A stretch of DNA of 64,000 nucleotides from Blastocatellia bacterium (GCA_963765495.1 CAVXWP010000007.1:128001-192000), one strand, 5' to 3'; positions 20,858-45,592 are shown, numbered from the stretch's first letter. Notes: generated from the letters alone by a model not told the origin. A program made the numbers and translations.

Positions 20858-23698
20858 CTATTCGTGTCGCAATGCATCAAGCGGATCAACTCTTGATGCG
20901 CGGCGAGCGGGTATCCAGCAGGCCGCGAGCGCCACAAGCAACAACACTCCCGCTATCGCTCCGAATAGCAGTGGGTCGGCCCCCTTTACTCCATAAAGCT
21001 GTTCGGCCATCTCGTGCTGCCACGTCTCGGGGCCGTAATACTGGGTCGCCATCAGTCGCTTTACCGCGTACGCAGCAAGCCCGCCTGCCGCAAGGCCAAG
21101 CAATACGAGTTTCATTCCCTGCCAGATCACAAGTCGCAGGACGTTCCCCGGCTGCGCGCCAAGCGCCATCCGTATGCCTATCTCGTTTGTGCGTTGCGCT
21201 ACCGAATATGCAAGCACGCCCGATAGACCTATGGCCGCAAGCAAGAGCGCCAGTATCCCGAAAAAGCTGAGTAACTGCGCATAAAGCCTCTCCTGACTCA
21301 AGGATGCTTCGGAGCGGGCTGTCTGCGATGAGACTTCCGTTATCGGCAGATTGCCGTCGAGTTCCTGCACCGTCTGGCGCACGGCCTCCGTGAGCGCGGT
21401 TGGCTCTCCCTCGGTCCGCAGCGCAAAATACATGCCTCCGATGTTGTCTACTTCCTGTTGCCACGGCGTGTAAAGCAACGGCTCCATATCTTCGCGCTGG
21501 CTGTTGTATTTGCTGTCGGCCACTATGCCTACGATTTCGAGATCGTTTTTTGCCCGGTTTAACTTTACACGTTTGCCGAGCGCTCCTTCATCGGGAAAGA
21601 ACTGGCGCGCAAAGGTTTCATTGACGATGGCGACCTTCGGAGCATTCCGGTCATCCTGCGGAGTGAAATCGCGCCCGGCATGCAACGGAATCTGCAAGGT
21701 CGAAAAGTAGTTTTCGCGCACCATCTGACGGTTGGCTATATGGTCACTGGCTGTTTGTTCCGTTTCACCCGGCAGCAATAGGCCCGTGTTCCAGGTGTAG
21801 TGGGAGATCAGAGGAACTATGCCGAATGTGGCCGAGCGCACGCCGGGCGTGGTATCGAGCCGCGCAAACAATTGTTTATAGAAGTCGATCAGCCGGTCAT
21901 CTTTATATCCGCCCTTTTCCGGCTGCAATGCAAACGTCAGCAGGTTTTCCTGATTGAAACCGAGATCAATCTTTTGCAGGTTGCTCAAAGTGCGGATGAA
22001 TAACCCCGCGCCGATCAAAAGCATCAGAGACAGCCCGACCTGCGCCACGATCAAGCCTTTGCTCAAGCGCGATACGCCGCCCGTCGTGCGGCGGCTGCCT
22101 TTGAGCGAGCTTGCCAGATCGGTCTTTGTAGCGCGCAGGGCCGGAACCAGACCAAACAGAAGGCCGGTCAGAAGCGAAACGCCCAGAGTAAATCCAAGCA
22201 CCCGCCAGCTTAGATTCGGCTCGATGCCGTCGGGCAAAAAGTCTGTGTTCCGCCCGCCAAGCGACGCCAGCACGTTCTTGCCCCACAATGCCACCAGAAC
22301 TCCCGCCGCCCCGCCAATCGCCGCAAGCAACAGGCTCTCCGTCAACAGTTGTCGAATCAGTCGCCATCGTCCCGCTCCAACGGCCAGGCGTATGCTGATC
22401 TCCGGCCCTCTTAGTGCCGCTCGCGCAAGCAAGAGATTGGCTACGTTGGCGCACGCGATCAGCAACACAAGCACCACCACGGCGAACAGACCGTATATCG
22501 TTTTCGCATAGATTTTGCGAATCTCCAACAACCCGCGTCCGCCCGATATCGCCATCAGTTGAGGATATTGCGCGGGGTCTATCTGCGCCGCTTCGCTCTC
22601 TTTGCGCGGGGGCGGCATTATCTCAAGCGCGGTGGCCTGGAAAGCGCCGCCAAGACTGTCGCGCGCCTGTTCAAATGTAGCCCCGGGTTTCAATCGCCCC
22701 ATCAGATGAACCCACCAGTAGCCCGGCTTGTCTGCCTGCGCCATTGCGGAACTCTCACCCAGCAGCACAGGCTCAAATGCGAGCGGCACCGTGACCTCAG
22801 GGTGCGTGCTCACTTGCAGAGTGCCGCTGAAGCCGGGAGGCGTTACGCCGATAATGGTAAACGATGTCTTATTGAGCTTGATCTGCTGGCCGACTGCGTC
22901 GGGGTCGGAGTTGAATCTCTTCTGCCAGTAATCGTAATCGAGGACGACTACAGGCGTAGCCGCCGTATTGTCGTCCTCCGCTGTGATTGCGCGCCCGTAA
23001 ATCGGGTGTACGCCAAGCCCCGTGTAGTAGTCGCCCGAAACTCCCTGCCCGTGAACATTCTCCGCCTGTTCATTCATCACGGCGGTCAGTTCGTACAGCG
23101 GCGCAAAGGCGAAGAGGTCGCTCAACGGATCGTCGGCCAACTGCGCCCGCGCCTGCCGTAGTTTTTCGATTATGTCGTAACGAAAGACCGAGGCGTGCCG
23201 CCTGCCCGGCATATCATTGACAAAGGTGCCGCGGCTTCCGTTGGTCCTGAAATCGCGACCCGCCTGCCATTCAAACAGCACAAGCCGATCAGGTTCAGCC
23301 ACCGGCAGCATCCTGAGCAATACGGTATCAACCAGGCTAAACTGCGCGGTGTTTGCGCCTATGCCGAGCGCAAGCGAAAGCACAGCGACGATGGTGAAGC
23401 CTTTGTGTTTGAGCAGCATTCGCCAGCCATAACGCAGGTCTTGAAACATCTCGTCCTCCAATCTTTTCGGTTGTAAGAGTAATGCATCCAAAAACGCGCC
23501 CAGACTACGCCTGAGCAGATCGAGTTTCGCCCGCCAGTCGAGACGGTTCCACTCCGAAAGCAACAGTTCACGATAATACAACTCGGCTTCCCACTCGCGC
23601 CGCCAGTTTGCGCGAAGCCGGCGCGGCACGATCACGCCGATCAGACGGATCAGCCAGAGCCAGAATCGAAAGCGGGCAATGCGAGTCCGATCAGCCAT
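20858..23698 (-). CDS. ADOP-family duplicated ABC permease (array gene 9, distal)
   Basis: Conserved leader + [44 protein letters not shown]; two MacB-PCD/FtsX halves. Confidence 0.92.
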
Positions 23699-23771
23699 CA
23701 GATTTACTCGTGGCGAAGCGCGGTTAAGGGATCAACCCTCGTAGCCCGCCGCGCAGGTATCCAGCAGGCCA
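23648..23771. repeat. 124-bp junction direct repeat, copy 1 (partner 26317-26440)
   Basis: 123/124 identical; spans the 3' end of one permease, the 5-nt spacer and the 5' end of the next. Confidence 0.9.
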
Positions 23772-26367
23772 GAAGCGCAACGCCTGTCAGCAGGAAAGCA
23801 ACTCCCACAAACGTCAGCGGGTCAGTTGCGCTCACCCCAAACAGCAACGACTTCAGCCATCGCGTCAAAATCAGAGCGCCTGTCAAACCAAAACCCACAC
23901 CCGGCAGCGTCAGTTTCATCCCTTGCCCGATGATCAGGCGCAGTACATCTTGCGACTGTGCGCCCAACGCCATACGAATGCCGATCTCATGCTTGCGCTG
24001 CGTAACGGTGTAGGCGAGCACACCGTAAATCCCCAGGGCCGCCATCAAAAGCGCCACCCCCGCAAAGATCGCCATCAACAACAGCGTGAAGCGGCGTGGG
24101 GCGAGTGAGGCCGAGAGCAGTTGCCGCATCAGGGTGACTTCGTAAGCAGGCAGATCAGGATCAAGCGCGTGGATGGCCTGTCGAACAGCGCCCGTCAGAG
24201 CGCTTGGCTCGACCGAGGTGCGCACAACCAATTGCATATACGAATCCGTCAACTGCGCGTGCGGAACGTAAACCTGTAAATCGGGTGGCGTTTCCAGGCC
24301 ATAGTGGTTGACATCACCGACAATGCCTACGATAACGCGCGGCGGATCGTCAATTCCACCCAGCCTTATCTGCTTTCCAACGGGGTCTTCATCCGGCCAG
24401 ATGCGACGAGCCGCGGTCTGATTGATGAGGGCCACAAGCGTATTGTTTTCGTTATCCTGATCGGTAAAGCCACGACCACGTAAGACCGGAATCCCCATCG
24501 CACGCAGATAATCGGGGGTGATACCGTAACGTTCCGCGCTGGGCGCTTCGGCCGGATTTGCCAGCGGTTTTTCCTCGACGTGAAACCCGCTTGTGTCCAT
24601 ATTGCCGCCAAACGGCAGATTGCTGACAAGGCCAACTGCCTCGACGCCGGGCAGCGCTTCGATACGTTTGATGGCTTCGCTGTGAAAGGCGCGTTTCTGC
24701 GCCTCCTCACTGTACTTTGCGCCAAGGGCCGGCACCGGCATCGTCAACAGATTGCGCGCTTCGAACCCCGGCGTTACATCCAGCACGCGCGCGAAACTGC
24801 GGATGAGCAAACCCGCTCCGGCCAGCAGCACCAGCGCGAAGACAATTTCAGCCACCACAAACATCTCGCGCGCTCGGCGCTGTCCTTTGCCTGATGAGCC
24901 TCTGGCTTTTTCCTTCAAGGCAAGCTGGACATCCTGCCGCGCTGCCTGCCACGCCGGGGCCAGGCCAAAGAGCAAACCCGTCAGCAATGCCGACAGGAAC
25001 GTAAAGCCCAGCACGCGCGCATCAATCGTGACTGTCTGTACCTGCAACATCCTGGCGGGGCTGAGCCGCGTGAGCAGATCCGTCCCCCACAGCGCCAGCA
25101 ACAATCCAGCGCCCGCCCCGAGCGATGACAGCAGCAGACTCTCAATCAGCAATTGCCGCATAATGCGCAACGCGGGAGCGCCCAGCGCCGCGCGAATCGC
25201 CATCTCCATTCGTCGCTCATTTGCGCGTGCCAGCAACAGGCTGCCGATGTTTGCGCACGCGATCAGCAAGACTCCTCCCACCGCCGCCAGCAGCAGGTAC
25301 AGGGCCGAACGGATGGCGTTTACAAACTGATCCTGAAGGCGCGCAATGCTGACGGCAGATGTTGCATAGATTTTCGGATGCTCGGTCTGCATCACGCTCA
25401 TAATCGCGCTCATCTCGTTTCTGGCCTGCTCCATCGAAACATCGGATTTGAGACGGGCGATAGTCTTAAGGTGCTGGCAATCGCGACAGGCAAACGGCTG
25501 CGTCACGTCATATCCAAGCGGTACCCAGATGTCGGCTGTCTTGTAAAAATTCGCGGCGAGCAGATCGGTAAACCCTGATGGCATGACGCCTATAATCGTG
25601 TATGGTTGATCGCTCAGGCTGAGTTGTTTGCCTAAAACGTTCGGATCAGAGTTGAAACGCCGCTGCCAGAGCGAATGGCTGATGATAACGACAAAGCGCG
25701 TCGCCGGGCGGTCTTCGGCAGCCGCGAAATCACGGCCCAGTTCCGGGCTGACGCCCAGCAGATTGAAGTAGTCGGCAGACACGCGCAATCCCTGAATCAT
25801 CTCTGATTCACCCTGCCCGGTCATCACCCCTCCCCAATACCGGATCGCCACCATCGACTCGAACGAGTGGCTGCGCTCGCGCCAGTCTGCCAGAGTGGCA
25901 TATCCGGTGTTGCCCAGCACCCCTCCACTTTCGTCCGTCGATAGCATTACCAGCCGATCAGCATCCTGATACGGCAGCGGGCGTAGCAACACGGCGTTGA
26001 CTACGCTGAAGATCGCCGTGCTCGCGCCGATCCCAAGCGCGAGAGTGAAGACCGCAACAAGAGTGAAACCGGGATTCTTCCATAACATCCGCACGCCGAA
26101 ACGCAGATCTTGAAACATCTCATCCTCCCATCTGTAGGATTGCAACCAGAGCGCATCCCAGAATGCGCCGAGTGAGCGCCTGAGCAGATCGAGCCGTGCC
26201 CGCCACCCGAGACGGTCCCACTCCGAAAGCAACAGTTCGCGATAGCGCAACTCGGCCTGCCACTCCTCGCGCCAGTCTCGGCGAAGCCTTCCGGGGACGA
26301 TCACGCCTATGAGCGCGATCAGCCAGAGCCAGAAACGAAAGCGGGCAATGCGAGTCCGATCAGCCAT
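23704..26367 (-). CDS. ADOP-family duplicated ABC permease (array gene 8)
   Basis: Same motif set; leader [29 protein letters not shown]. Confidence 0.92.
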
Positions 26368-26440
26368 CAGATTTACTCGTGGCGAAGCGCGGTTAAGGGA
26401 TCAACCCTCGTAGCCCGCCGCGCAGGTATCCAGCAGGCCA
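26317..26440. repeat. 124-bp junction direct repeat, copy 2
   Basis: See 23648-23771. Confidence 0.9.
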
Positions 26441-29084
26441 CAAACGCGACGGCGATAAGCAAAATCGCTACACCCGCGAATGTGACGGGATCGGTTGCGC
26501 CTACGCCTAAGAGCAGACTCGCCAGTACGCGGGTTACGGCGAAAGCTCCAACGAGGCCGATCACAATACCGGCAATCACGAGCGTCATTCCCTGGCGGAG
26601 AATAATCCGCAGCACATCGCGGATTTGCGCGCCTAATGCCATGCGGATGCCGATCTCGCGTGTTCGCTGGCTGACCGTGTAGGTCATCACGCTGTAAAGT
26701 CCCATCGTTGCCAGTAGCAACGCAAGCAGGCCAAAGGTCGTAGCCATCCCGGCGGCCAGTCGCGGACCCCAGTAGGCATACGATAAATTCTGCTCAGCCG
26801 TCTGCACGCCAAAGACCGGCACACGCGAATCTATCTGCCCTATTTCGCGCCGAACGCTTTCGGCTATGGCTTTTAAATCGCCCGCAGAATTCGCGCCGAC
26901 AAGCAAGGTCATCTCCGACTGGTATTGCTGATATTCGGGCAGGTACATGTACATCTGCGGATCTTCGTATAGATTGCGGTACAGACCATCTTTGGCGATT
27001 CCGATAATCTCATTCAGCGGCTCCTTATTGCTCCAGAATCGAATGCGTTTTCCAAGTGCCGCCTGCTCGCTGCCGTAAAACCGGCGCGCAAATTCTTGAT
27101 TGACGATCACGACACGGGGCGTGTCAATCGTGTCGCGTTCGGTGAAATCGCGTCCCGACACGAGAGGCGTTTTTACAGTTTTAAAATATCCGGGCGCAAC
27201 CCAGTTGCAGGGAACAGTTACTCCCTGATTTGGCGGAGGGTCGGGCTCGCCTTCCTTTATCACCGGGCCTTTGCTGGAGTTGTTGTCACTGAGCGGCAAA
27301 TAAGCCGCAAGCGAAGCCGCGCGCACGCCGGGCTGCGCCTCTACGCGCCTCAGAGTTTCGGTATAAAACCGCTTTCCATCGGCGTCGTCATAGCCAAGCA
27401 ATCCCGGGTCAAGCCTCATCGTCACAAGCCTGTCGGCGCTGAATCCCAGATCGGTCTTCAGAACCTTATCCAGGCTTCTCAGAAACAACCCCGCGCATAC
27501 CAGCACTATGATCGAAATAGCCACCTGCGCGACTACGAGCGAGCCGCGCAGATTCCATCGCCGCCCCGTCCTGCCCGAAGACTGTCCGGCTATGCCGCCT
27601 TTGATCACAGCAACCAGATCGGTACGCGACGCAAGCCACGCCGGAGCCAGCCCAAAGATCAAGCCCGTCATCAGCGTAATAATGATCATCCATTTCAGCA
27701 CCGCAAGATCGGGACTGACGCCGAGATCAACAGGATAGGGAATCGGTGGAACCGAAGCATTAATCAGACTCGCCCCACCATAAGCAAAACACCATCCGAG
27801 CGCGCCGCCAAGGCTCGCGAGCAGAACGCTTTCGGTCAGCAGTTGTCGTATGATGCGAAACCGTCCCGCGCCAATCGCCAGACGGATGCCGATCTCTTTA
27901 GCGCGAGTAGCGGCTCGCGCAAGCATAAGATTCGCTACATTCGCGCAGGCCACGATCAGCACGAGACCGGAAACGCACAGCGCCAGCAATGCGCTGAATT
28001 TGAATGCGCCTACAGTATCCCCAAACCGCCCATCCGGTTCAGAAACGATTCGAACTTTCGTATCCGCGTTATTTTCCGGGTAAAGCCGGGCCAGATTTTC
28101 CGCGATCAGATTCAAATCCGCCTCGGCCTGCTCCATAGTGACGCCGGGTTTGAGCCGCCCTATCACGTTTAGGTTTGTCCACCCTCGGTTGGTTTCCCAT
28201 TCCGCGCCCATTTTGAATTTTGAGCGCATCATCAAAGGCGTCCAGAAGGACTGCTGTAATGGGAATTTCACGCCCTTAAATGCTTCGGGCGCTACGCCGA
28301 TTATCGTAAATGGAAACCCGTTCATGTAAATCGTTTTGCCCACAACCGAAGCATCGGCATTGAAACGACGCTGCCAGAGCGAATGGCTTATCACTACCAC
28401 CGGATGCGCATCCTGCGTGCGGTCTTCTTCGGGCAGAAAACCGCGACCCAGGATAGGTTTGACGCCGAGTACATCGAAGTAATTGCCGCTGACTATTTCG
28501 CCCCAGCCGATTTCCGCCCGTTCATTGTCGCCGGTACTGTGATTCTCGCCCGAACTGATCCCCGCCGAGGTCATACTCCACGCAAGTAAACCGGAAAGGC
28601 TCTTGTTCTGATCGCGCAGGTCAATATAGTTAGGGTAAGAAAAGTCGCCCCAGACCTCGCTGTCTGTCTTGCCGCCCCAGAACCCCACAACCAGTTCGTC
28701 CGGCTTTTCAACCGGCAGCGGACGAATAAGGAAACTGTTGACTGTACTCAATATCGCCGTATTCACGCCAATGCCGAGCGCAAGCGTGAGCACCGCCACA
28801 GCCGTGAACGCCTTGTCCTTTACCAGCATCCGCAGGCCGAAACGCAGGTCTTGAAACATCTCATCCTCCCATCTGTAGGATTGCAACCAGAGCGCATCCC
28901 AGAACGCGCCGAGACTGAGTCGCCTGAGCAGATCGAGCCGTGCCCGCCAGCCGAGACGGTCCCACTCCGAAAGCAACAGTTCGCGATAACGCAACTCGGC
29001 CTGCCACTCTTCGCGCCAGTCCGCGCGTACCCGGCGCGGCACGATCAGACCAATAAAGTTTATGAACCAGAGATGAGGCTTCAC
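26373..29084 (-). CDS. ADOP-family duplicated ABC permease (array gene 7)
   Basis: Same motif set; leader has an extra residue (RRLSLGAF). Confidence 0.92.
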   Translation of the reverse strand: MKPHLWFINFIGLIVPRRVRADWREEWQAELRYRELLLSEWDRLGWRARLDLLRRLSLGAFWDALWLQSYRWEDEMFQDLRFGLRMLVKDKAFTAVAVLTLALGIGVNTAILSTVNSFLIRPLPVEKPDELVVGFWGGKTDSEVWGDFSYPNYIDLRDQNKSLSGLLAWSMTSAGISSGENHSTGDNERAEIGWGEIVSGNYFDVLGVKPILGRGFLPEEDRTQDAHPVVVISHSLWQRRFNADASVVGKTIYMNGFPFTIIGVAPEAFKGVKFPLQQSFWTPLMMRSKFKMGAEWETNRGWTNLNVIGRLKPGVTMEQAEADLNLIAENLARLYPENNADTKVRIVSEPDGRFGDTVGAFKFSALLALCVSGLVLIVACANVANLMLARAATRAKEIGIRLAIGAGRFRIIRQLLTESVLLASLGGALGWCFAYGGASLINASVPPIPYPVDLGVSPDLAVLKWMIIITLMTGLIFGLAPAWLASRTDLVAVIKGGIAGQSSGRTGRRWNLRGSLVVAQVAISIIVLVCAGLFLRSLDKVLKTDLGFSADRLVTMRLDPGLLGYDDADGKRFYTETLRRVEAQPGVRAASLAAYLPLSDNNSSKGPVIKEGEPDPPPNQGVTVPCNWVAPGYFKTVKTPLVSGRDFTERDTIDTPRVVIVNQEFARRFYGSEQAALGKRIRFWSNKEPLNEIIGIAKDGLYRNLYEDPQMYMYLPEYQQYQSEMTLLVGANSAGDLKAIAESVRREIGQIDSRVPVFGVQTAEQNLSYAYWGPRLAAGMATTFGLLALLLATMGLYSVMTYTVSQRTREIGIRMALGAQIRDVLRIILRQGMTLVIAGIVIGLVGAFAVTRVLASLLLGVGATDPVTFAGVAILLIAVAFVACWIPARRATRVDPLTALRHE

Positions 29085-29097
29085 ATAATGCCTTTCA

Positions 29098-31746
29098 TCA
29101 TTCGTGTCGAAGCGCCCTCATCGGGTCCACCTTCGTAGCGCGCTGCGCGGGTATCCAGCAGGCCATCAATGCGACGAATATCAACAGTGACGCGATCAGA
29201 ACGAATGTCATCGGATCGGTCGCGCTCACGTTGAACAACAAGCTCTTTATCAATCGCGTCAGGGCAAGCGATGCGGCAAGACCGATGCCTACGCCGATAA
29301 TTGCCAGTGTCATTCCCTGTTTCACAACCAGCTTCAACACATCGCTCGTTTGCGCCCCCAGCGCCATCCGAATTCCGATTTCGTGTGTGCGTTGATTAAC
29401 CGAGTAAGAGATGACCGCATAGATTCCCGTCGCCGCAAGTATCAACGCAAGCCCCGCCAGAATCGCTATCAAAAGCGCGGGATAGCGTCGCAGAAAGGCT
29501 GAAGGCGTATCGCTTATCAGTTGCTCCATCGTCGCTGCCGAATAGAGCGCGAGGTCCGGGTCTATCGCCTGCACTTCACCGCGCACCGCGCTCACAATGT
29601 TCTGGGGGTCGCCTGCGGTTCGCACCACCAGATTGAGCTTTGTCCAGGGCTCTTGCAGGAAGGGGCGATAGATCACCGAGTCGGGCTCTTCATCGAGCGC
29701 GCCGACCCTCTCGTCATCTACCACGCCGATAATCTCAAGCGGCCTCGGCTCGTCGCCCGCGAAGTTGATGCGGTGCCCTATCGGGTCCTGATCTGCGAAG
29801 AGCCGATTGGCGAGCGCGGCGTTGATGATGATCGCATCGGGCGAGGCCGGATTGTCCTGTTCCGTAAACTCGCGTCCGCGCAGGAGGGCGATCCCCATCG
29901 TGCGAAAGTAAGTCGAACTGACCGTGCGCGTGCTTGCCTTTGGCTCTGTACCCGGAGCCGGTGGTGGTTGCCCTTCGACAAGCAGCAGATCGCCGGGGCC
30001 GGGCTGCATGGGCAGCCAGTTGACGGTAGCGGCCCCGACTACGCCGGGCAAATTTTCGATGCGCGAAAGCATTTGCTGATGAAATGCGCGCGTCTGATCG
30101 TCTTCGGAGTATCTGCCCGGGGGCAACTCCAATTGCAGGGTCAGCAACTGCTCGGGCTGAAACCCTAGCTTGACTTCCAACAATCGCAACGTGCTCTTTA
30201 TCATCAAACCCGCTCCGACAAGCAGCACAAGCGCCAGAGCGATTTCCGAGATCATAAGCAGCCCGCGAAATCCATAACGGCCCGCAGCCGTATTTGCGCG
30301 GCTGCCGTCCTTGAGCGAGGATTGCAGATCGAGCTTTGATGCCTGCCAGGCCGGAGCTAGCCCGAAAACTATCCCCGTCAAAGCCGACAATGCGCCCGTA
30401 AAGGCGAAGACCCGCCCGCTGAGCGTAAGCCCTCGGAGGTAAGGCATCGTATCGAGTTGCGCAGCCGGAATGGCCGCGATCAGAAACTTGATTCCCCAGA
30501 CGGCAATCGCGAGCCCGACGACTCCTCCCAGAAGCGTCAGCAGCAGGCTTTCGCTGATGAGTTGCCGCACAAGTCGCCAGCGGGTTGCGCCGAGGGCTAA
30601 TCTTACTGCGATCTCTTTGCGCCGCGCCGCAGCGCGAACGAGAAGGAGATTTGCGACGTTGGCGCAGGCTATGGCAAGCACGAATCCTACTGCTCCAAAC
30701 AGGACAAGCAGAAGCGGGCGAACAGAGCCTATGATCTGATCGTGCAGGGGGACTATCCTGATGCCCGCGCCCGTGTGCGAATCGGGGTTGTCGTGCTCGA
30801 TGCGAGAAGCAATCGCGCTCATCTGCGTCTGAGCCTGTTCGATGCTTACGCCGGGCTTCAGCCTGACTATAACATCCAGCCAGTGCATGAAGCGCCGCGT
30901 TACCTGCCCCTCGCTCGGGCGCAAGGGAACCCAGAGTTCAGCCTTTCCCATCGGCGCGAATTGGAAACTCCGGGGCAGCACTCCGAGCACCGTGTAGGCG
31001 TCTCCATCGAGCATCAGCCGCTGCCCTATGATGTTCGGGTCAGCGCCGAAACGTCTTTGCCAGAGCCCGTAGCTCAAAATGACATTTGCCGCTGCGCCGG
31101 GTTTGTCTTCATCAGGCAGAAACGAGCGGCCCAAAACGGGGTCTACGCCGAGCACGGAAAAGAAACCTGCGGTGATGCGCGCGCCCTCGATGCGTTCGGG
31201 TTCGGCCCTGCCTGTGAGGGTGAACGAGCCGCCCCAGCCCGTGTAACCGCATATGCCTTCGATGACATCGGTCTGGCTGCCCCAGTCCAGATAATCGGGA
31301 TAGGAGGCGTCTACCTGTTTGATTTCATAACCGGGGCGAGTCTCCCAGATTTGAACCAGCCGGTCAGGATTTCTGTATGGCAACGCGCGTAAAAGCGCCG
31401 CATCGACTACCGTAAATATCGCGGTGTTAGCGCCGATGCCCAATCCGAGCATGAGCATGGCAACGGCGGTAAAGCCCGGCTTTTTCAAAAGCATTCGCAC
31501 GCCGAAACGTATGTCTTGAATCATTTCGTCCTCCCAACGGTAGGATTGGAGCCAGAGCGCATCCCAGAATGCGCCGAGACTGCGTCGCCATAAATCCAGT
31601 CTGTTTTTCCAGTCGAGTCTGTCCCAGTCCGCCAGGAGCAACTCGCGGTATTGCAACTCGGCTTCCCACTCATCGCGCCAGTCCGCGCGCAGACGGCGAG
31701 GGACAATCAAACCGATAAATTGAATCAGCCTCAGATGCGTCTTCAC
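29098..31746 (-). CDS. ADOP-family duplicated ABC permease (array gene 6)
   Basis: Same motif set; leader [12 protein letters not shown]. Confidence 0.92.
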
Positions 31747-31773
31747 ATTTACCTTTAATCACTCGTGCTTTAA

Positions 31774-34531
31774 TTACTCGTGCCGCAGGGCCGTCAGCGG
31801 ATCGACCTTCGTAGCTCTGTGCGCGGGCAGAAAACCTGCCAGCGCCGCCACCGCGATCAACAGCAAAATAGCCGAAACGAGAGTCAGCGGATCGTTTGGT
31901 TTTAGCCCAAACAGTAAACTGTCAGCCATCTTTGTGACGGGCGAGGCGACGGCCAGCCCGATGCCTACGCCTATGAGAACCATCAACATCGCTTCGCGGA
32001 AGATAAGCCAGATGACGGCTCCGCGCTGCGCGCCGAGCGCCATACGGATACCGATCTCATTTGTGCGGCGCGCTACCGAATAAGAGAGCGTACCGTAGAG
32101 ACCTACGCAGACGAGCAGAAGCGCGAGCAATCCGAAGAAAGCGGCAAGCCAGGCGACAAGTCTTTGCTGAACAAGCGACCGGCCTATGTGTTCCGAAAGT
32201 GTCACGACTTCATCAATGGGGAGGTTGGAATTTACATCCTGGATGGAGCGTCTTATCAGCGGAATGACAGCCGCAGGTGAACCCGAGTAACGCACGATAA
32301 AATTGCTGAGATTTCCTCCGCCCTGAGCGTGCGGATAATAAGCCATGGCTTGCGGGTCTTCGGTCAGGCTCATGGATTTGGAATCTTTCACAACGCCGAT
32401 GATTTCGATCTCTTCTCTGGATTCGGGGCCGTCGATGCCAAAACGCCTGCCGAGCGGAGACTGGTTGGGAAAGAAACGTTCAGCCATCGTCTCACTTATC
32501 ACGGCGACCTTCTGAGATTTAAACGTGTCCTGCGTGCCAAAGCTTCGACCGAGCACAAGCGGGATGCCCATCGCTGTGAAATAATCCGGGCCGATGGTGT
32601 TATTCCTGATGACCTGGCTCCGGCCTTCGAATGTGGGTTTTTCACGCGTGAATGCAGGGGTTGTCCATGTGCCCTGATTAAATGTCATCATTGAAAATGA
32701 AGCCGCCTCGACGCCCGGCACCGTCTCTACCTTCTCTTCAACCTCGCGGAGCATTTCGGCGAGTTGAGCGTCTTTATAGCCCGTTGGACTGGTATCGATT
32801 TTAAATTGCAATGCGTTGTTTGTATTGAATCCTGTTGGAACATTCTCAAGATTTGTCAGAGTGCGGACAAACAATCCGGCTCCCACAAGCAATAGAAGCG
32901 AAAGCGACACCTGCGCTATAACGAGCGCCCTGCCGAGCGGGCTCTGCGAAATGGCCTGCGCCGTGCCTCGCCCTCCTTTCAGCGATGTATAGGGTTCGAT
33001 TCGGGCAGCGCGCAGCGCCGGGGCCGTCCCAAAGATGACGGCCGATAGCAGCGATGCAAGCAAGGTGAAACCTAAAACGCGGGCGTTGGGGGATACGTCC
33101 AGAGGGAGCGGCTCGGAGCTTGCGGAAACCATGAGGACGAGCAAACGGCTGCCCCACCACGCAAGAAAGACGCCCGCGATGCCCCCGAGAGAGGCAAGCA
33201 GAATGCTTTCCGTCAGCAACTGGCGGATGAGGCGTATGCGGCCCGCGCCCAGAGCCAGCCGCACTGCGAACTCCTTCTGTCTGGATGCCGCGCGCGCAAG
33301 CAGGAGGTTGGCTACATTTGCGCAGGCTATCAGCAGCACAACCCCGACTACGGCCATCAGAATCCGCAACGACAGAGAGAACTCCTGGCGGAGTTCCGAC
33401 AGCCCCCGCCCGGCAGGAGTCAATACAATAAATGCTTTCTGGATGTCTTGCTGCCGCTCGGGTGAAGGTTGCGGTCCCGCTACTTCTTGAAGGAACTGTT
33501 TGAATTTCAGGTTTACGGCTGCGCTTGCCTGTTCTGTGCTCACGCCGTTTTTCAGACGAGCGATAATATTGAGCGATTGAAATAAGCCCTCATCCCGCCC
33601 GTTCCAGTGAGCGGGTGGGAACTGCTCTCCCATCGCCAGAGGCACATAGATATCGGGTGCCTGGCCGACCGTCGTGCCGAAAAACTCGCGCGGCGCGACT
33701 CCGACAATGGTGTATGCGACCTGATCAATCGTGATCGTTTTGCCGAGCGCCCGAGGGTTGCCGCCAAGCCTGTTTTCCCAGAAGGCGTGGCTCACTACGG
33801 CAATCGGATGCCCCCCGGGCGTCTGATCATCCTCGTCATTGAAGACGCGACCGAGATAAGGGGTCACCCCAAGCGTAGAGAAATAAGTGCCCGACACCAG
33901 TTGAGCATCGATCTGCTCCTGATTGCCGCTCGCTCCATTTGTATTGACGGAACCGTGTACGCTCCAGGGGATGCTCAAGGCGCCGCGACATCGGAAAAAG
34001 ACCTCATTGTGCTTCTGCACTTCTCTGTAAAAAGGATAGGAGAAGAGATCGCAGCTTTCGTTTGGGAAGCCGCCTGACACCCCCATCCCCTCGCCTCTCC
34101 CGAAGAGGATGAGCCGCTCAGGCTGCTCGACCGGAAGCGACTTGAGCAGCACTACATCGAGCAGGCTGAAGATCGCGGTGTTCGCCCCTATGCCGAGCGC
34201 GAGCGAAAGCACTGCAATCAGAGTGAACCCAGGTTTCTTGAGCAGCATTCGCGCGCCGTAACGTAAATCTTGAAACATATCATCCTCCAAACGGTAAGAT
34301 TGCAGCCAGAGCGCATCCCAGAATGCGCCAAGTGAGCGCCCGAGCAGATCGAGCTTCGCACGCCCGTCGAGGCGGTCCCACTCCGCAAGCAACATGTTCG
34401 CGGTAACGGAGTTCGGCCTCCCATTCATCGCGCCAATCTGCGGCGAAGACGGCGCAGGCACGAGCACGCCGATCAGACGGATCAGCCACAGCCAGAATCT
34501 GAAATCGAGTTTCAGTCGTCGGGTCAGACAT
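31774..34531 (-). CDS. ADOP-family duplicated ABC permease (array gene 5), leader frameshifted
   Basis: Expected start ATG 34531 (MSDPTTETRF); about four single-base insertions in the leader and a compensated shift near 33980-34000; core open from MFQDLRYG. Confidence 0.8.
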
Positions 34532-34545
34532 CAATTTCCACGGCC

Positions 34546-37221
34546 TCACTCGTGACGCAGGGCGACCATCGGGTCAACCTTTGTAGCTCTCCGCGCAGGC
34601 AGATAGCAGGCCAGTAGAGTGACCGACGTAAGGAGAAGAGAGATAACCGCAAATGTTACGGGATCGGTCGCGCTCACGCCGAAAAGCAGACTCTTCATCA
34701 ATCGCGTCAGCGCAAGGGCCGCTCCCAGACCAATCGCGACACCGATAAGGGTCAGCCGTATACCCCGCCCAATCACCAGCTTTAAGACATCCGATTTTTG
34801 CGCGCCCAAAGCCATGCGAACCCCGATCTCGTGTGTGCGCCGCGTGACCGAATAAGACATCACGCCGTAGATGCCTATGGCGGCAAGCAGAAGCGCAAGC
34901 AACCCGAAGCCGCCCAGGATCGAAGCCGCTATTCGCGCAGGGAGCATCGGAAGACTCAACTTCTCGACGAGCGTGTCGGAAGAGACCGGCATGTGCGGAT
35001 CGAGTTCCTGCACTTCGCGGCTCACGGCGGCCATCATCGTCTGTAAATCGCCCCTGGTGCGGACGATCACACTCGTAGCCCCTGTGTCGGACTGCCAGAT
35101 CGGACGAGCTACATAGGGGAGCGGGTCTTCATTCAAGCCCGCGTACTTGCCGTCTTCGACCACGCCGATGATCTTTGTCTTTGCCGCTTCGGGTCTGCCC
35201 AGACGAAATTGTCTGCCGAGCGGGTCTTCGCCGGGGAAGAGGCGGCGCGCGAATGTCTCGTTGATGATCGCCACACGTTCTCCCTGTTCATCGTCCTGAG
35301 GGGTGAAATCGCGGCCTTCGAGCATGCGCGTGCCCATCGCCTGGAAGTAGCCGGGGCCTACCCGGTTGTACATAGCCACGGGTACTTTTGCGTTTCGCTC
35401 CGGCGTTTGCCCTTCGGTAAAAATTTGAGTGCGCGAAAAATGAAGATCGACCGGGATGGTGTCGCCTATGCCTGTGGATTCGATGCCGGGCAGGGCGCGG
35501 ACGCGCTCAAGCAAACGTTTCTGAAACTCTTTGCCCTGAGCGTTCTCGTACCCTTGCAACCGAAGATCGAAAGAGACTTCGGCGGCGCGCTCGGGTTCGA
35601 ATCCGAGCTTGAGCGTCTGCGCCTTTTCGAGCGCCCGCATCATCAGCCCGCCGCCAACCAGCAGCATAAGCGACAGGGCGATCTGTAAGACGATCAGCCC
35701 GCTTTTCCAGAATGTGCGAGAGCTTCTGCCAAATAAAGACTCGCCTTTGAGCGCCGGGATCAGATCGGTCTTCGTGGTCTGTAAGGCTGGCAACAACCCG
35801 AAGACCACGCCGGTCACAAGCGAGAGCAGGAAGGTAAAGAGATACACTCTATAATCGACAGAGATACCAATCGTCACCGGAACATTGACCGGCATCTTGA
35901 TCGCCCCGGCCAGATTCACAAGCCACAGCGCAGGCAGCAAACCAAGCGCGCCGCCAAAGAGAGCAAGCAAGAGGCTTTCAGTCAGCAGTTGCCGCACGAG
36001 CCGGAAGCGGGTTGCGCCCAATGCCAGCCGCACGGCGATCTCTTTCTGTCGTTCCGCCGTTCGAGCCAGAAGCAGATTGGCCAGATTGATGCAGGCCAGC
36101 AACAGGACTACTCCAACCACAGCCATCAACAGCCCGAGAAAACCGAGCACGGGGCCGCGCATTGCATTGCCTATCAAACCGGGAGGCGACAGGGCGATAC
36201 GTTTGCCTTCGTTGACATCCGGGTATTCGCGCTCAAGCTGGGCGGCAATCGTGTTGAGCGCCGTTTCCGCCTGAGCTACGCTTATGCCGGGTTTGAGGCG
36301 GCCCTGCACAAAGATATTGTCATTGCCACGCTCGTCGAGCCAGTTGTTGCCCAGTTCGAGTTGCGCCTGCATCGCCATGGGGAAAAACAGGTCGGGCGCA
36401 GCGATGATTTCGGTTCCGAAAAAAGATTTTGGCGCTACACCTATGACGGTGTAACTGCGACCGTTGACAATCAAATCTCTGCCGATGATTTCCGGGTCTC
36501 CGCCAAAGCTGCTCTGCCAGTATTTGTAGCTCAATACGGTCACGGGATGCGCGCCCGCCGCCCGGTCGTCGTCAGGCGTGATCATCTGTCCGAGCGCCGC
36601 GTTTACGCCGAGAACATCAAAGTAATTGCCCGTCACCTCATAACCCCAGAGCCGTTTGTTGATCCCGTCGTGGCTCAGGCTGAGCGGCGTAAAGCGATAG
36701 CCGATGAGACCGGAAAACGCCTCGTTGCGATCACGCAGATCCTTGTAATTCGGATAAGAGAATGAAGGGAAAATATGGCGTTCCGCCATGTTGTTGAGCG
36801 CCACAATCTGGCCCGGCCCCCGGACAGGCAACGGACGCAACAAAACGGTATTGATCAAACTGAAGATGGCGGTATTTGCGCCCGTGCCAAGCGCAAGCGA
36901 GAGCACCGCAACAAGCGTAAAGCCTCTGTTCTTGAGCAGCATTCGCACGCCGTAACGTATGTCTTGAATCATCTCGTCCTCCCAACGATAAGTTTGCAAC
37001 CAGAGCGCATCCCAGAACGCGCCAAGTGAGCGCCTGAGCAGATCAAGCCGTGCACGCCAGCCGAGGCGGTCCCACTCCGCAAGCAACAGTTCGCGGTAAC
37101 GGAGTTCGGCTTCCCACTCTTCGCGCCAATCAGCGCGAACCCTGCCGGGCACGATCACGCCGATCAAACGGATCAGCCACAGCCAGAATCGAAACCGGTT
37201 TGATTGAGCCGTGTCGGTCAT
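34546..37221 (-). CDS. ADOP-family duplicated ABC permease (array gene 4)
   Basis: Same motif set; leader [17 protein letters not shown]. Confidence 0.92.
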   Translation of the reverse strand: MTDTAQSNRFRFWLWLIRLIGVIVPGRVRADWREEWEAELRYRELLLAEWDRLGWRARLDLLRRSLGAFWDALWLQTYRWEDEMIQDIRYGVRMLLKNRGFTLVAVLSLALGTGANTAIFSLINTVLLRPLPVRGPGQIVALNNMAERHIFPSFSYPNYKDLRDRNEAFSGLIGYRFTPLSLSHDGINKRLWGYEVTGNYFDVLGVNAALGQMITPDDDRAAGAHPVTVLSYKYWQSSFGGDPEIIGRDLIVNGRSYTVIGVAPKSFFGTEIIAAPDLFFPMAMQAQLELGNNWLDERGNDNIFVQGRLKPGISVAQAETALNTIAAQLEREYPDVNEGKRIALSPPGLIGNAMRGPVLGFLGLLMAVVGVVLLLACINLANLLLARTAERQKEIAVRLALGATRFRLVRQLLTESLLLALFGGALGLLPALWLVNLAGAIKMPVNVPVTIGISVDYRVYLFTFLLSLVTGVVFGLLPALQTTKTDLIPALKGESLFGRSSRTFWKSGLIVLQIALSLMLLVGGGLMMRALEKAQTLKLGFEPERAAEVSFDLRLQGYENAQGKEFQKRLLERVRALPGIESTGIGDTIPVDLHFSRTQIFTEGQTPERNAKVPVAMYNRVGPGYFQAMGTRMLEGRDFTPQDDEQGERVAIINETFARRLFPGEDPLGRQFRLGRPEAAKTKIIGVVEDGKYAGLNEDPLPYVARPIWQSDTGATSVIVRTRGDLQTMMAAVSREVQELDPHMPVSSDTLVEKLSLPMLPARIAASILGGFGLLALLLAAIGIYGVMSYSVTRRTHEIGVRMALGAQKSDVLKLVIGRGIRLTLIGVAIGLGAALALTRLMKSLLFGVSATDPVTFAVISLLLTSVTLLACYLPARRATKVDPMVALRHE

Positions 37222-37226
37222 CGGGT

Positions 37227-39881: not shown

Positions 39882-39893
39882 AATCGCCCCCGG

Positions 39894-45241: not shown

Positions 45242-45245
45242 GGTT

Positions 45246-45572
45246 TCAGCCTTGCTCTTCAATAGTCTTTCCGACCTTTGCAGGCCCGGTCTGTTCAAGC
45301 ATCTTGTATCGCTTCGCCGCCTCTATCAGCGCATCCTCTCCGCTGCGGGTGAGTTGATAGTATTTTCGTGGGGGTCGCAATTCCTGCTGCGCGATTGTCG
45401 ACTTTTCCCATTTCGAGGTTACAAACCCCGCTTCCTCCAGACGACGCAGCGCCGGATAGATCGTGCCGCTCGGCAAACCCGTTATGTCCATTATGTCGAA
45501 ACCATACCGATAGCCGTTTGCCAGAGCCTGCAATATCACCGTAGCCGAAAATGATAAATATCCTTTCCCCAT
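45246..45572 (-). CDS. PadR-family transcriptional regulator
   Basis: [34 protein letters not shown]; GAGGAG RBS before ATG 45572. Confidence 0.92.
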
Positions 45573-45592
45573 ATGTCTCCTCACTAAATCGT

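Follow-up and report, generated by a model that had tools for sequence, protein, structure and literature searches.

Short-tract gene conversion as the probable origin of a 124-nt repeat flanking one permease gene in a nine-gene ADOP array of a Blastocatellia bacterium

Results

A 124-nt repeat at two neighbouring gene junctions

The 64,000-nt window (the whole stretch of DNA analysed here) contains an old array of nine ADOP permease paralogs in which two neighbouring gene junctions share a 124-nt sequence, very probably as the result of recent short-tract gene conversion between them. In all likelihood the repeat belongs to a large set of short patches copied among neighbours by an ordinary process, and does not mark a mobile cassette. 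The coordinates of the genes, of both repeat copies and of related tracts are collected in Table 1.

Table 1. Genes and shared tracts of the permease array, with positions counted from the first letter of the window
Feature	Coordinates	Strand	Details
ADOP array	20858..45298	(-)	nine co-directional ADOP paralogs, G1-G9; TIGR03434
G1, downstream ADOP permease, last gene of the array	20858..23698	(-)	946 aa; TIGR03434 906.7 bits
G2, bracketed gene, ADOP family duplicated permease	23704..26367	(-)	887 aa; TIGR03434 995.4 bits (cutoff 622.3)
G3, upstream ADOP permease	26373..29084	(-)	903 aa; TIGR03434 940.3 bits
PadR-family regulator gene, array head	45246..45584	(-)	Pfam PadR, E 8.3e-14, 51.8 bits (cutoff 27)
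Repeat copy A	23648..23771	(-)	end of G2 (21 codons + TAA), 5-nt spacer, first 17 codons of G1
Repeat copy B	26317..26440	(-)	end of G3, 5-nt spacer, first 17 codons of G2
Tract in G6 prefix (longer second conversion tract)	36928..37112	(-)	185 nt, 98.4% to 39615-39799 (G7)
Partner in G7 prefix	39615..39799	(-)	185 nt, 98.4%
Two tracts in G2 prefix, paired with G3	26086..26277	(-)	two direct tracts
Partners in G3 prefix	28827..29021	(-)	direct tracts

The initial annotation, made from the sequence alone, had described a 124-bp direct repeat that spans a gene junction and differs at one base, and this was borne out with exact coordinates: the two 124-nt copies show a single mismatch (23666 vs 26335), and the bases immediately beyond both of their ends are not the same. 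Reading of the minus strand confirmed that the repeat takes in the end of one gene, the spacer and the start of the next, each copy beginning, on the coding strand, with 2 nt, 21 codons and the TAA stop that close the upstream gene, followed by ATCTG as spacer and by the opening 17 codons of the downstream gene. The 17-residue N-terminal peptide encoded in both copies is the same, and the sole mismatch is a synonymous CGA/CGT difference. The likeness of synonymous sites held as well, with matches at 38 of 39 third codon positions within the tract vs 33 of 51 and 18 of 66 in the flanks. The gene between the copies, G2, is indeed a unit flanked by in-register, junction-spanning direct repeats, whose start-to-start distance (2669 nt) corresponds to one gene unit, that is, a 2664-nt CDS plus the 5-nt spacer.

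The flanks of both copies, compared in the same register, are 58-76% identical, vs 123 matches in 124 positions within the tract. Near-identity with such sharp edges is a mark of gene conversion, as is the homogenisation of synonymous sites inside the tract relative to its flanks. A blastn match around the tract extended over 567 nt with 75.7% identity, a value that fell to 69.1% when the tract was taken out; at this background, the chance of observing at least 123 matches in 124 is about 7e-19. Across the genome, near-identical copies of the 124-nt sequence were just these two, the next best matches being 81% over 64 nt and 71% over 124 nt.

An old array of ADOP permeases

The TIGR03434 cutoff was passed by all nine array genes, with scores of 906.7-1022.5 bits. 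Pfam scanning of G1, G2 and G3 revealed two MacB_PCD (PF12704) and two FtsX (PF02687) stretches in each, and the PDB relatives were MacB chains (E 2e-20 to 2e-17). These traits (TIGR03434 scores, doubled MacB_PCD and FtsX in the three genes scanned, MacB relatives) are shared with ADOP and MacB-type (type VII ABC) permeases, from which the array genes differ by a prefix located before the first residue of the family model. The eight spacers of the array measure 5, 5, 13, 27, 78, 5, 12 and -4 nt (range -4 to +78). At the head of the array, the PadR-family gene overlaps the annotated TTG start of G9, and its TIGR03433 score (45.4 bits) is under the cutoff of 101.8. No ABC ATPase family was found among 18 flanking ORFs (Pfam) or 3 further large ORFs (NCBIfam); with no ABC ATPase gene alongside among the flanking ORFs scanned, the array permeases fit the 'orphan' type of ADOP.

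Pairwise identities among G1-G9 were 37.5-49.1% at the amino acid level and 48.2-56.6% at the nucleotide level, and no pair was near-identical over its full length. G2 showed 43.8% aa identity to G1 and 44.9% to G3, and no near-identical second copy of it was present in genome-wide repeat lists. Its GC content (0.593; array range 0.565-0.606) and its GC3 (0.682) were within the ranges of the array. Reciprocal best matches in other genera, with 66-74% aa identity, were found for G1, G6, G7, G8 and G9. As judged from their sequences, the array paralogs are old and predate the split of the genera. The order of the genes within the array is not kept between genera, and the closest cross-genus relative of the G2 body (60% aa, in genome G010) lacks the prefix. 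Among 40 relatives searched, none of them a same-genus genome, the best foreign DNA match reached 67%, and the best metagenome relatives showed 51-54% aa identity.

Prefixes cluster by genome and bodies by orthology

The prefix, of ca. 83 aa, precedes the first residue of the TIGR03434 model in all nine genes (frame-disrupted in G5). No Pfam or NCBIfam model matched it and no PDB match covered it; among the protein-atlas matches listed there was no named cluster, all of them being 'hypothetical protein'. The motif GGAGGA-N4-ATG, located within the reading frame at the canonical ADOP start, is kept in nine of nine genes. Mean pairwise differences at codon positions 1/2/3 were 0.21/0.09/0.35 in the prefix and 0.47/0.35/0.66 in the body. 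Synonymous divergence is lowered in the prefix relative to the body.

The G2 prefix is a mosaic, its nearest paralog being in turn G1 (100%), G9 (91-94%), G3 (97%), G7/G6 (92-94%) and G3 (97-100%). Such a mosaic of tracts from the same array means that G2 has been resident and has repeatedly exchanged sequence. Analysis of 29 prefix-bearing genes from seven genomes revealed that the nearest prefix (nt) came from the same genome for 26 of them, whereas the nearest body (aa) came from another genome, also for 26; this comparison took the prefix as a whole and omitted ADOP ORFs without the prefix motif or shorter than 700 aa (e.g. 7 of 11 in G010). One of the three cases with a prefix from another genome (G013) had no same-genome partner to choose from. 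Same-genome prefixes combined with other-genome bodies amount to concerted evolution. Across genera, the type of N-terminus is not bound to body orthology.

Further tracts at the ends of ADOP genes

Direct tracts of at least 45 nt and at least 92% identity numbered 23 in the array and 51 across the 53 ADOP ORFs of the genome. Of these 51, 36 fell within the first 160 codons of an ORF and 8 within the last 140, 4 crossed junctions and 3 were intergenic, with 0 in gene bodies. Among the 43 tracts with both ends in ADOP ORFs, 15 linked adjacent genes and 22 linked genes 2-8 apart. The two tracts shared by the G2 and G3 prefixes correspond to 101 nt at 97.0% (26177-26277 vs 28921-29021) and 87 nt at 96.6% (26086-26172 vs 28827-28913). 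Only the longer tracts with at least 97% identity are safe as conversion tracts; for many of the shorter ones (45-70 nt, 92-96%), codon bias combined with strong purifying selection may be the cause instead of conversion.

A Sawyer-type permutation test, in our own implementation and ignoring rate variation among sites, was run with 2000 permutations on eight junction segments, whose alignment had 648 columns free of gaps, 398 of them polymorphic. Four fragments were globally significant, every one of them between adjacent junctions. The top fragment, J7>6/J8>7, corresponds to the G6/G7 tract and comprises 57 polymorphic sites (global p 0.0005), followed by J2>1/J3>2, the 124-nt repeat, with 53 sites (global p 0.0005), J3>2/J4>3, where the tracts of the G2 and G3 prefixes lie, with 21 sites (global p 0.004) and J6>5/J7>6 with 20 sites; the longest permuted run was 23 sites.

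Gene-end tracts of at least 60 nt and at least 95% identity were also present in five of six arrays from other genera, a sample biased by choosing arrays for several consecutive matches, and the G010 array contains a junction-spanning pair of 71 nt with 100% identity. Such tracts were detected in 15 of 45 metagenome loci with at least two ADOP ORFs, loci biased by having been picked for similarity to G2; the number drops to 14 if L035 is discounted, since its tracts are located outside ADOP ORFs.

Discussion

Probable gene conversion between adjacent junctions

The data suggest that purifying selection keeps the ends of these genes, i.e., the C-terminal transmembrane tail and the N-terminal prefix, alike among paralogs (ca. 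70-82% nt), and that gene bodies have drifted apart to ca. 50% nt identity. As only the ends would retain enough match for RecA-type strand exchange, patches would be copied from junction to junction, mostly between adjacent genes, through conversion, a non-reciprocal repair event of homologous recombination. For the 124-nt pair, copy A, at the G2>G1 junction, most probably overwrote copy B, at the G3>G2 junction. The final 21 codons of G3 would then derive from G2, and the spacer before G2, together with its opening 17 codons, from G1; the one synonymous change would have arisen after copying. The assignment of copy A as probable donor and copy B as probable recipient is derived from the change of nearest paralog at the tract edge: G1 remains G6/G5-like (91-97%) on either side of the downstream tract boundary, whereas G2 passes there from G1-identical to G9-like (91-94%). 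From these patterns we infer that the tracts arose by recombination, that copying ran from A to B, and that residual similarity is what confines tracts to gene ends.

Among paralogs in bacteria, intragenomic (ectopic) gene conversion and concerted evolution are known from tufA/tufB, rRNA operons and the opa and pil genes of Neisseria. The array resembles these systems in its short, sharp-edged tracts of near-identity inside diverged paralogs, in its homogenised synonymous sites and in the dependence on residual sequence similarity, but differs in that the exchange does not go beyond a junction module, made up of the C-terminal tail, the spacer and the N-terminal prefix, in nine genes with bodies just 40-49% identical. 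Repeat families of M. tuberculosis reportedly provide further examples (PMC12046097, PMC13061034), and the phenomenon is the subject of a prokaryote-wide survey (PMC6053082). In the literature searched, no description of gene conversion in ADOP family arrays was found.

Alternative explanations

The initial annotation had considered G2 as the expected product of Campbell-type integration of a circular cassette or of unequal crossover, and neither origin was upheld. Entry of G2 by a single crossover, as a 2.67-kb circle with one copy of the junction, and exit by the same route would account for in-register direct repeats that bracket exactly one gene unit, and is in line with whole-gene units having been gained, lost or reshuffled over time, as the differing array orders imply, and with the separable histories of bodies and prefixes implied by the prefix-less relative of the G2 body. 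We nevertheless hold it to be very unlikely. G2 is a single-copy, old paralog of its neighbours, with array-like GC and GC3 and a prefix sharing further tracts with G3, G9, G7 and G6 of the same array, features that do not fit a foreign history, and the repeat is not special to G2, as it counts among 23 comparable tracts of the array. In addition, no recombinase, transposase or other mobility family was matched (Pfam, E <= 1e-5) among the 18 flanking ORFs tested, and the assembly contains no small circle, its smallest contig measuring 29.6 kb. Nearby mobility genes are not strictly required for RecA-mediated events. For a Campbell event, the identical 124 nt would have to be present in circle and target from the start, and this alone calls for homogenisation. 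Integron cassettes and Campbell-type circles are similar in having one gene between direct repeats and a conceivable circular form, but here the 18 flanking ORFs tested yielded no integrase family, the repeats consist of coding sequence common to neighbours and the enclosed gene is a resident paralog. It is extremely improbable that the repeat is what remains of a gene duplicated recently in tandem through unequal crossover, with an interior that diverged afterwards. The spacing equals one gene unit and tandem arrays are the classic substrate of unequal crossover, but divergence is 1/124 in the tract vs saturation just outside (27% of third positions matching over the next 66 codons), the paralogs are older than the genus split, and G2 is no nearer to G1 or G3 than to any other paralog, in place of the whole-length near-identity of a fresh duplicate.

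Selection on a junction element, such as a signal for translational coupling, an internal promoter or an RNA structure, could hold 124 nt constant. At the centre of the tract lie a stop codon, the 5-nt spacer and a start codon, an arrangement that recurs at the G7>G6 junction (TAA, 5 nt, ATG). That junction, however, is just 71% identical over 124 nt, the remaining five differ in spacers and start codons, and similar tracts sit at varying positions in different gene pairs, which a fixed element leaves unexplained. The predicted fold is ordinary (-42.6 kcal/mol, z = -0.56; equalled or bettered by 56 of 200 shuffles), and no Rfam family was found in 20000-46000. We regard such an element as highly improbable, and the same low standing applies to consensus polishing, or a collapsed or chimeric assembly, having made the copies alike. 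The genome is in 17 contigs with overlapping ends and may be metagenome-derived, since the only runs holding its DNA are soil metagenomes. On the other hand, reads would not cross-map between flanks of 58-76% identity, and repeats of 1.3-12.7 kb are resolved within contigs, which points to long reads. A separately built public soil-metagenome contig of 486 nt (record 6) covers 26108-26593 with one difference, and so takes in copy B along with the unique sequence to its left and right; the differences listed for its run (X1) within this interval lie only at 26164-26191, outside the repeat. Run X1 is possibly the source sample and hence not independent, and copy A is covered by none of its pieces listed. 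Similar tracts in five of six arrays of other genomes, and at 14-15 of 45 metagenome loci from assemblies made elsewhere, also make an artefact unlikely.

Possible consequences for the array

RecA-dependent unequal crossover and duplication-amplification use in-register direct repeats as substrate and yield clean deletion or duplication of one gene. The array offers such repeats one gene unit apart, and as a side effect of conversion its tracts may serve as substrates for unequal crossover, which could delete or duplicate whole gene units. No duplication or deletion product was seen in it. The clean excision of G2 proposed in the initial annotation is geometrically possible: because the repeats are in register and one unit apart, recombination between them would remove exactly G2 and leave an intact G3-stop, spacer and G1-start junction. 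In run X1, the one run with this DNA, which is shallow (depth about 0-7) and kept as contigs only, no joint skipping ca. 2669 nt and no circle joint was detected.

Beyond the probable origin of the repeat in gene conversion, the junction module might act as a homogenised 'linker' maintained by the array, with a common cytoplasmic prefix that docks one shared partner and with portable homology for the swapping of bodies. We consider this reading rather unlikely, although it is hinted at by the uncoupling of bodies and N-terminal types across genera, the reshuffled array order, the prefix-less closest cross-genus relative of the G2 body and the conservation of GGAGGA-N4-ATG at the canonical ADOP start in nine genes. 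If it were true, linker homology would let whole permease bodies be swapped, added or dropped within and between arrays, in a recombinase-free, cassette-like shuffling system for substrate-specific permeases.

A near-identical repeat at adjacent junctions of a permease array

The region contains nine tandem ADOP permease genes (G1 to G9, G9 being the first), all of which scored above the TIGR03434 cutoff of 622.3 bits (906.7-1022.5 bits). Comparison of G1, G2 and G3 with Pfam revealed two matched MacB_PCD and two FtsX stretches apiece, and the relatives of solved structure are MacB chains. A PadR-family regulator gene lies at the head of the array, and its 3' end shares 53 nt (45246-45298) with G9 as annotated from a TTG start; the true G9 start may be a downstream ATG (MAFFHRLKA...), in which case the overlap would largely or wholly disappear. 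The 18 flanking ORFs tested were ordinary chromosomal genes, coding for instance for a fucosidase, aminotransferases, a TonB-type receptor, UvrC and a universal stress protein, and none of them matched recombinase, transposase or ABC ATPase families in Pfam (E <= 1e-5).

Features of the permease array and of related tracts (window coordinates unless a contig is named)
Feature	Position	Strand	Description
G1	20858-23698	minus	ADOP family duplicated permease
G2	23704-26367	minus	ADOP family duplicated permease
G3	26373-29084	minus	ADOP family duplicated permease
G4	29098-31746	minus	ADOP family duplicated permease
G5	31774-34467	minus	ADOP family duplicated permease
G6	34546-37221	minus	ADOP family duplicated permease
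G7	37227-39881	minus	ADOP family duplicated permease
G8	39894-42575	minus	ADOP family duplicated permease
G9	42572-45298	minus	ADOP family duplicated permease
PadR-family regulator gene	45246-45584		head of array
124-nt repeat, copies A and B	23648-23771; 26317-26440		G2>G1 and G3>G2 junctions
G6/G7 prefix tract	36928-37112 vs 39615-39799		185 nt, 98.4%; longest in array
G2/G3 tract	26177-26277 vs 28921-29021		101 nt, 97.0%
G2/G3 tract	26086-26172 vs 28827-28913		87 nt, 96.6%
Tract elsewhere in genome	contig C8		297 nt, 98.3%
Tracts elsewhere in genome	contig C9		234 nt, 97.0%; 177 nt, 99.4%
GGAGGA-N4-ATG, G2	26116-26128
GGAGGA-N4-ATG, other genes	23447-23459; 28857-28869; 31522-31534; 34276-34288; 36970-36982; 39657-39669; 42297-42309; 44984-44996
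G5 insertion motifs	34504-34495; 34459-34450; 34447-34438; 34399-34390	minus

The initial annotation had described a direct repeat on both sides of G2, covering a gene's end, the spacer and the beginning of the following gene, synonymous sites included, and this description was confirmed. The two copies, of 124 nt each, differ at a single position (23666 vs 26335) and comprise, on the coding (minus) strand, the 21 last codons and TAA stop of a gene, then the spacer ATCTG, then the 17 first codons of its neighbour. The sole mismatch is a synonymous CGA/CGT change, and at third codon positions the copies agree at 38 of 39 sites within the tract, compared with 33 of 51 and 18 of 66 in the sequence on either side. 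The copies are spaced by 2669 nt, their outer neighbouring bases are unlike at both ends, and their flanks show 58-76% identity. Against a background of 69% identity in the 567-nt match around the tract, a 123/124 match has a probability of ~7e-19. In the source genome (7.30 Mb, 17 contigs) these are the only near-identical copies of the tract; the next best are an 81% match across 64 nt and the G7>G6 junction, at 71% across all 124 nt. With its single difference, the tract is recent by comparison with the paralogs. A 486-nt contig of one soil-metagenome run, which may be the source sample, spans copy B with unique flanks and supports the assembly at copy B only.

Sister tracts are located at gene ends

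The paralogs resemble each other in DNA mainly at the gene ends, with bodies that barely align; junction segments, defined as the ~100 last codons of one gene and the ~120 first codons of the next, showed 66-83% aligned identity for every pair. A blastn search with a mismatch penalty of -4 for direct tracts (>=45 nt, >=92%) across the ADOP genes of the source genome, from whose count contig C10 was excluded, its end being a duplicate of the C11 start, detected 51 tracts. The window array carries 23 of them, the 124-nt tract being the second longest. Of the 51, 36 fall within the first 160 codons of a gene, 8 within the last 140, 4 cross a junction and 3 are intergenic; none was found inside a gene body. 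Among the 43 tracts with both ends within ADOP ORFs, 15 join adjacent genes and 22 join genes two to eight apart.

The eight junction segments (648 ungapped columns, 398 polymorphic) were subjected to a custom Sawyer-type test, which scored each pair by its longest run of shared polymorphic sites against 2000 permutations of site order; the largest permuted run was 23. Four fragments were globally significant, all four between adjacent junctions: J7>6 with J8>7 (57 sites, p 0.0005), J2>1 with J3>2, which is the 124-nt repeat (53 sites, p 0.0005), J3>2 with J4>3 (21 sites, p 0.004) and J6>5 with J7>6 (20 sites, p 0.0065).

The source genome holds 53 ADOP-like ORFs, including a 16-gene array on contig C9. 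In that array, two neighbouring gene starts share a 103-nt, 98% match in inverted orientation (C9:363944-364046 vs C9:366538-366640), and direct tracts occur at the same places, which suggests a palindromic element at those junctions. A sequence of 46-52 nt (96-100%) is common to intergenic ADOP spacers of three arrays (C7:798509-798580, C11:8404-8455 and C9:366614-366664); its C7 copy matches itself at 7-nt offsets and is therefore a heptamer repeat. Contig ends overlap between C7:842956-855649 and C11:16947-29652 (12.7 kb, 99.8%, inverted) and between C10:160744-169681 and C11:1-8937 (8.9 kb, 99.8%), so that one ADOP gene is counted twice among the 53; these three contigs are probably continuous with one another in the actual chromosome, or else represent unresolved haplotypes.

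Ancient gene bodies and concerted evolution of gene ends

Pairwise identity among the nine paralogs was 37.5-49.1% for protein and 48.2-56.6% for DNA, and G2 was no nearer to G1 (43.8%) or G3 (44.9%) than to any other array member. Several members have reciprocal best hits at 66-74% amino acid identity in arrays of other genera of the same family: G1 in three genomes (G010, G003 and G022), G7 in two (G010 and G009), G8 in G003, and both G6 and G9 in G015; the best match of G2 in other genera reaches 60%, in G010. The duplications are therefore older than the split of these genera, and a fresh tandem duplication is excluded. No same-genus genome was present among the 40 relatives searched, and the best foreign DNA match was 67%. 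Gene order differs among genera, the G1 ortholog adjoining that of G7 in G010 and the G9 ortholog adjoining that of G6 in G015.

The gene ends follow a different pattern from the bodies. We compared 29 genes carrying the motif of the prefix, the N-terminal ~83 residues ahead of the TIGR03434 model start, from seven genomes (9, 4, 6, 2, 3, 1 and 4 genes), motif-less ADOP ORFs and those of <700 aa being excluded. The nearest prefix (186 nt before the canonical Met) was that of a same-genome paralog in 26 of the 29 genes, one of the three exceptions (G013) having no same-genome partner to choose; the nearest body (from Met+100) belonged to another genome, likewise in 26 of 29. The type of N-terminus is uncoupled from body orthology: G7 starts with VKPHLSLIRF, and its 73% ortholog in G010 is of the MAD...RFRLWFWLIRL type. 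The prefix varies as coding sequence does, but with synonymous divergence depressed: at codon positions 1/2/3, genes differ pairwise by 0.21/0.09/0.35 on average, vs 0.47/0.35/0.66 in the body.

Similar tracts occur elsewhere. Gene-end tracts (>=60 nt, >=95%) were present in five of six arrays fetched from other genera, a biased sample picked for several matches in a row in the search of relatives, and G010 contains a 71-nt, 100% pair across a junction, like the 124-nt repeat. A metagenome scan with G2 retrieved 77 loci (best 51-54% amino acid identity), 45 of them with at least two ADOP ORFs; tracts of the same thresholds were carried by 15 of these 45, or 14 once locus L035, whose tracts fall outside ADOP ORFs, is set aside, a lower bound from truncated loci in a sample biased by its retrieval through G2 similarity.

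Origin of the 124-nt repeat

The initial annotation had regarded G2 as an excisable unit derived from Campbell-type integration of a circle or from unequal crossover. Its geometry stands, since recombination within the copies would delete exactly 2669 nt (the G2 coding sequence plus spacer) and leave the neighbours intact, which makes excision of G2 plausible; the prefix tracts would allow like deletions, with chimeric products. The proposed origin did not withstand analysis. The GC content of G2 (0.593) lies inside the array range (0.565-0.606) and does not mark it as foreign, its distance from G1 and G3 is not that of a fresh product of unequal crossover, its bracketing is one of 23 such tracts in the array, and at least four members of the array have traded sequence with it. 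Campbell integration would, in addition, presuppose prior identity of the 124 nt. A cassette or Campbell origin is thus not supported. Public sequencing runs were also inspected: a soil metagenome (X1, Logan contigs) contains 57% of the sampled words, and two further runs 7% (X2) and ~0% (X3). For X1, whose pieces listed on 21500-28500 are short and shallow (263-778 nt, depth ~0-7), no joint was listed, and so none skipping ~2669 nt, though contigs are unable to reveal rare variants; the four X3 joints, whose sides measure 21-25 nt at 90% likeness, derive from other organisms or from paralogs.

It is unlikely that the 124 nt have been kept alike by selection on a nucleotide element: the G7>G6 junction, of the same stop, 5-nt and start architecture, is only 71% identical, spacer and start differ at the other junctions, tract positions vary from gene pair to gene pair, the RNA fold of the tract is unremarkable (z = -0.56), and Rfam gave no match at the gathering threshold in 20000-46000. 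Likeness created by consensus polishing is also unlikely, given flanks that are 58-76% identical, the resolution of long repeats in the assembly and the same phenomenon in assemblies made by others. The pair very probably represents a short-tract gene conversion between adjacent junctions, as indicated by the embedded near-identical tract with sharp edges, the homogenised synonymous sites, the permutation test, the limitation of sister tracts to gene ends, and the clustering of prefixes by genome and of bodies by orthology. The mobile-cassette reading is replaced by one of ordinary gene conversion of tandem paralogs, and repeats of this kind are not peculiar to a single gene.

The G2 prefix is a mosaic, its nearest paralog in successive 36-column windows being G1 (100%), G9 (91-94%), G3 (97%), G7/G6 (92-94%) and again G3 (97-100%); past this region, G2 is nearest to G8/G9, at the lower level usual for its body. 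At the downstream edge of the 124-nt tract G2 changes from G1-identical to G9-like, and G1 is G6/G5-like (91-97%) on either side of it. In the simplest reading of these patterns, copy A would be the donor and copy B the recipient.

Strand exchange requires a few tens of matching bases. Only the gene ends, selectively conserved, would still supply such matches, and conversion would then hold these ends alike and sustain further conversion. Gene conversion and concerted evolution of bacterial paralogs are well established, with tuf, rrn and Neisseria as examples. Related work concerns M. tuberculosis repeat families (PMC12046097, PMC13061034) and a prokaryote-wide survey (PMC6053082). The ADOP family is scarcely treated in the literature searched, in which nothing on its arrays or on conversion was found; the 124-nt repeat probably reflects an ordinary process in an under-studied family.

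The N-terminal prefix

In the large ADOP arrays of soil Acidobacteria, gene ends evolve in concert within each genome and bodies keep ancient, orthology-wise identities. Consequently, trees or ortholog calls from the N-terminal ~100 codons will mislead, short-read assemblies will tend to break or mis-join at the tracts, and the unannotated prefix stands out as the protein segment with the strongest common constraint. This wider pattern is modestly useful, and the prefix is a reasonable target for finding the partner of these 'orphan' permeases. It appears rather improbable that the array keeps its homogenised junction module both to give the permeases a shared docking prefix and to supply portable homology by which entire permease units are shuffled.

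The prefix (~83 first codons of each gene in 20858-45298, with a 69-residue consensus) is the most conserved part of the proteins. No NCBIfam family matched residues 1-90 of G1 and G2 (E <= 1), no Pfam family matches the prefix, no PDB match covers it, and each of the protein atlas matches listed for it was a 'hypothetical protein' cluster (scores 0.85-0.90). Many metagenome relatives carry the prefix, the G2 match beginning at residue 1-16 in many of the 77 loci. The nearest cross-genus relative of the G2 body (60% amino acid identity) and its three neighbours (L013/L014, G010:C10:26089-35000) are without it and start with MQTLWQDVRYG, and genes with and without the prefix occur together in one G010 array.

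The G5 prefix (34390-34531, minus) has four single-base insertions vs the other eight genes. The first severs the old ATG (34531), and the remaining three sum to +3, so that the frame is regained with ~20 residues scrambled (a stretch of 20 where 19 are conserved); in the frame of the body, the longest ORF begins at GTG 34467. These changes reflect either prefix decay in this single gene or long-read indel errors.

All nine genes keep GGAGGA followed by four bases and ATG, which encodes (W/L)-E-D-(E/D)-M, at the exact residue where the TIGR03434 model and the prefix-less ADOP relatives begin. Judging from its sequence, this site looks like a Shine-Dalgarno motif with a start codon inside the reading frame, and a shorter, prefix-less isoform may therefore be produced alongside the long form.
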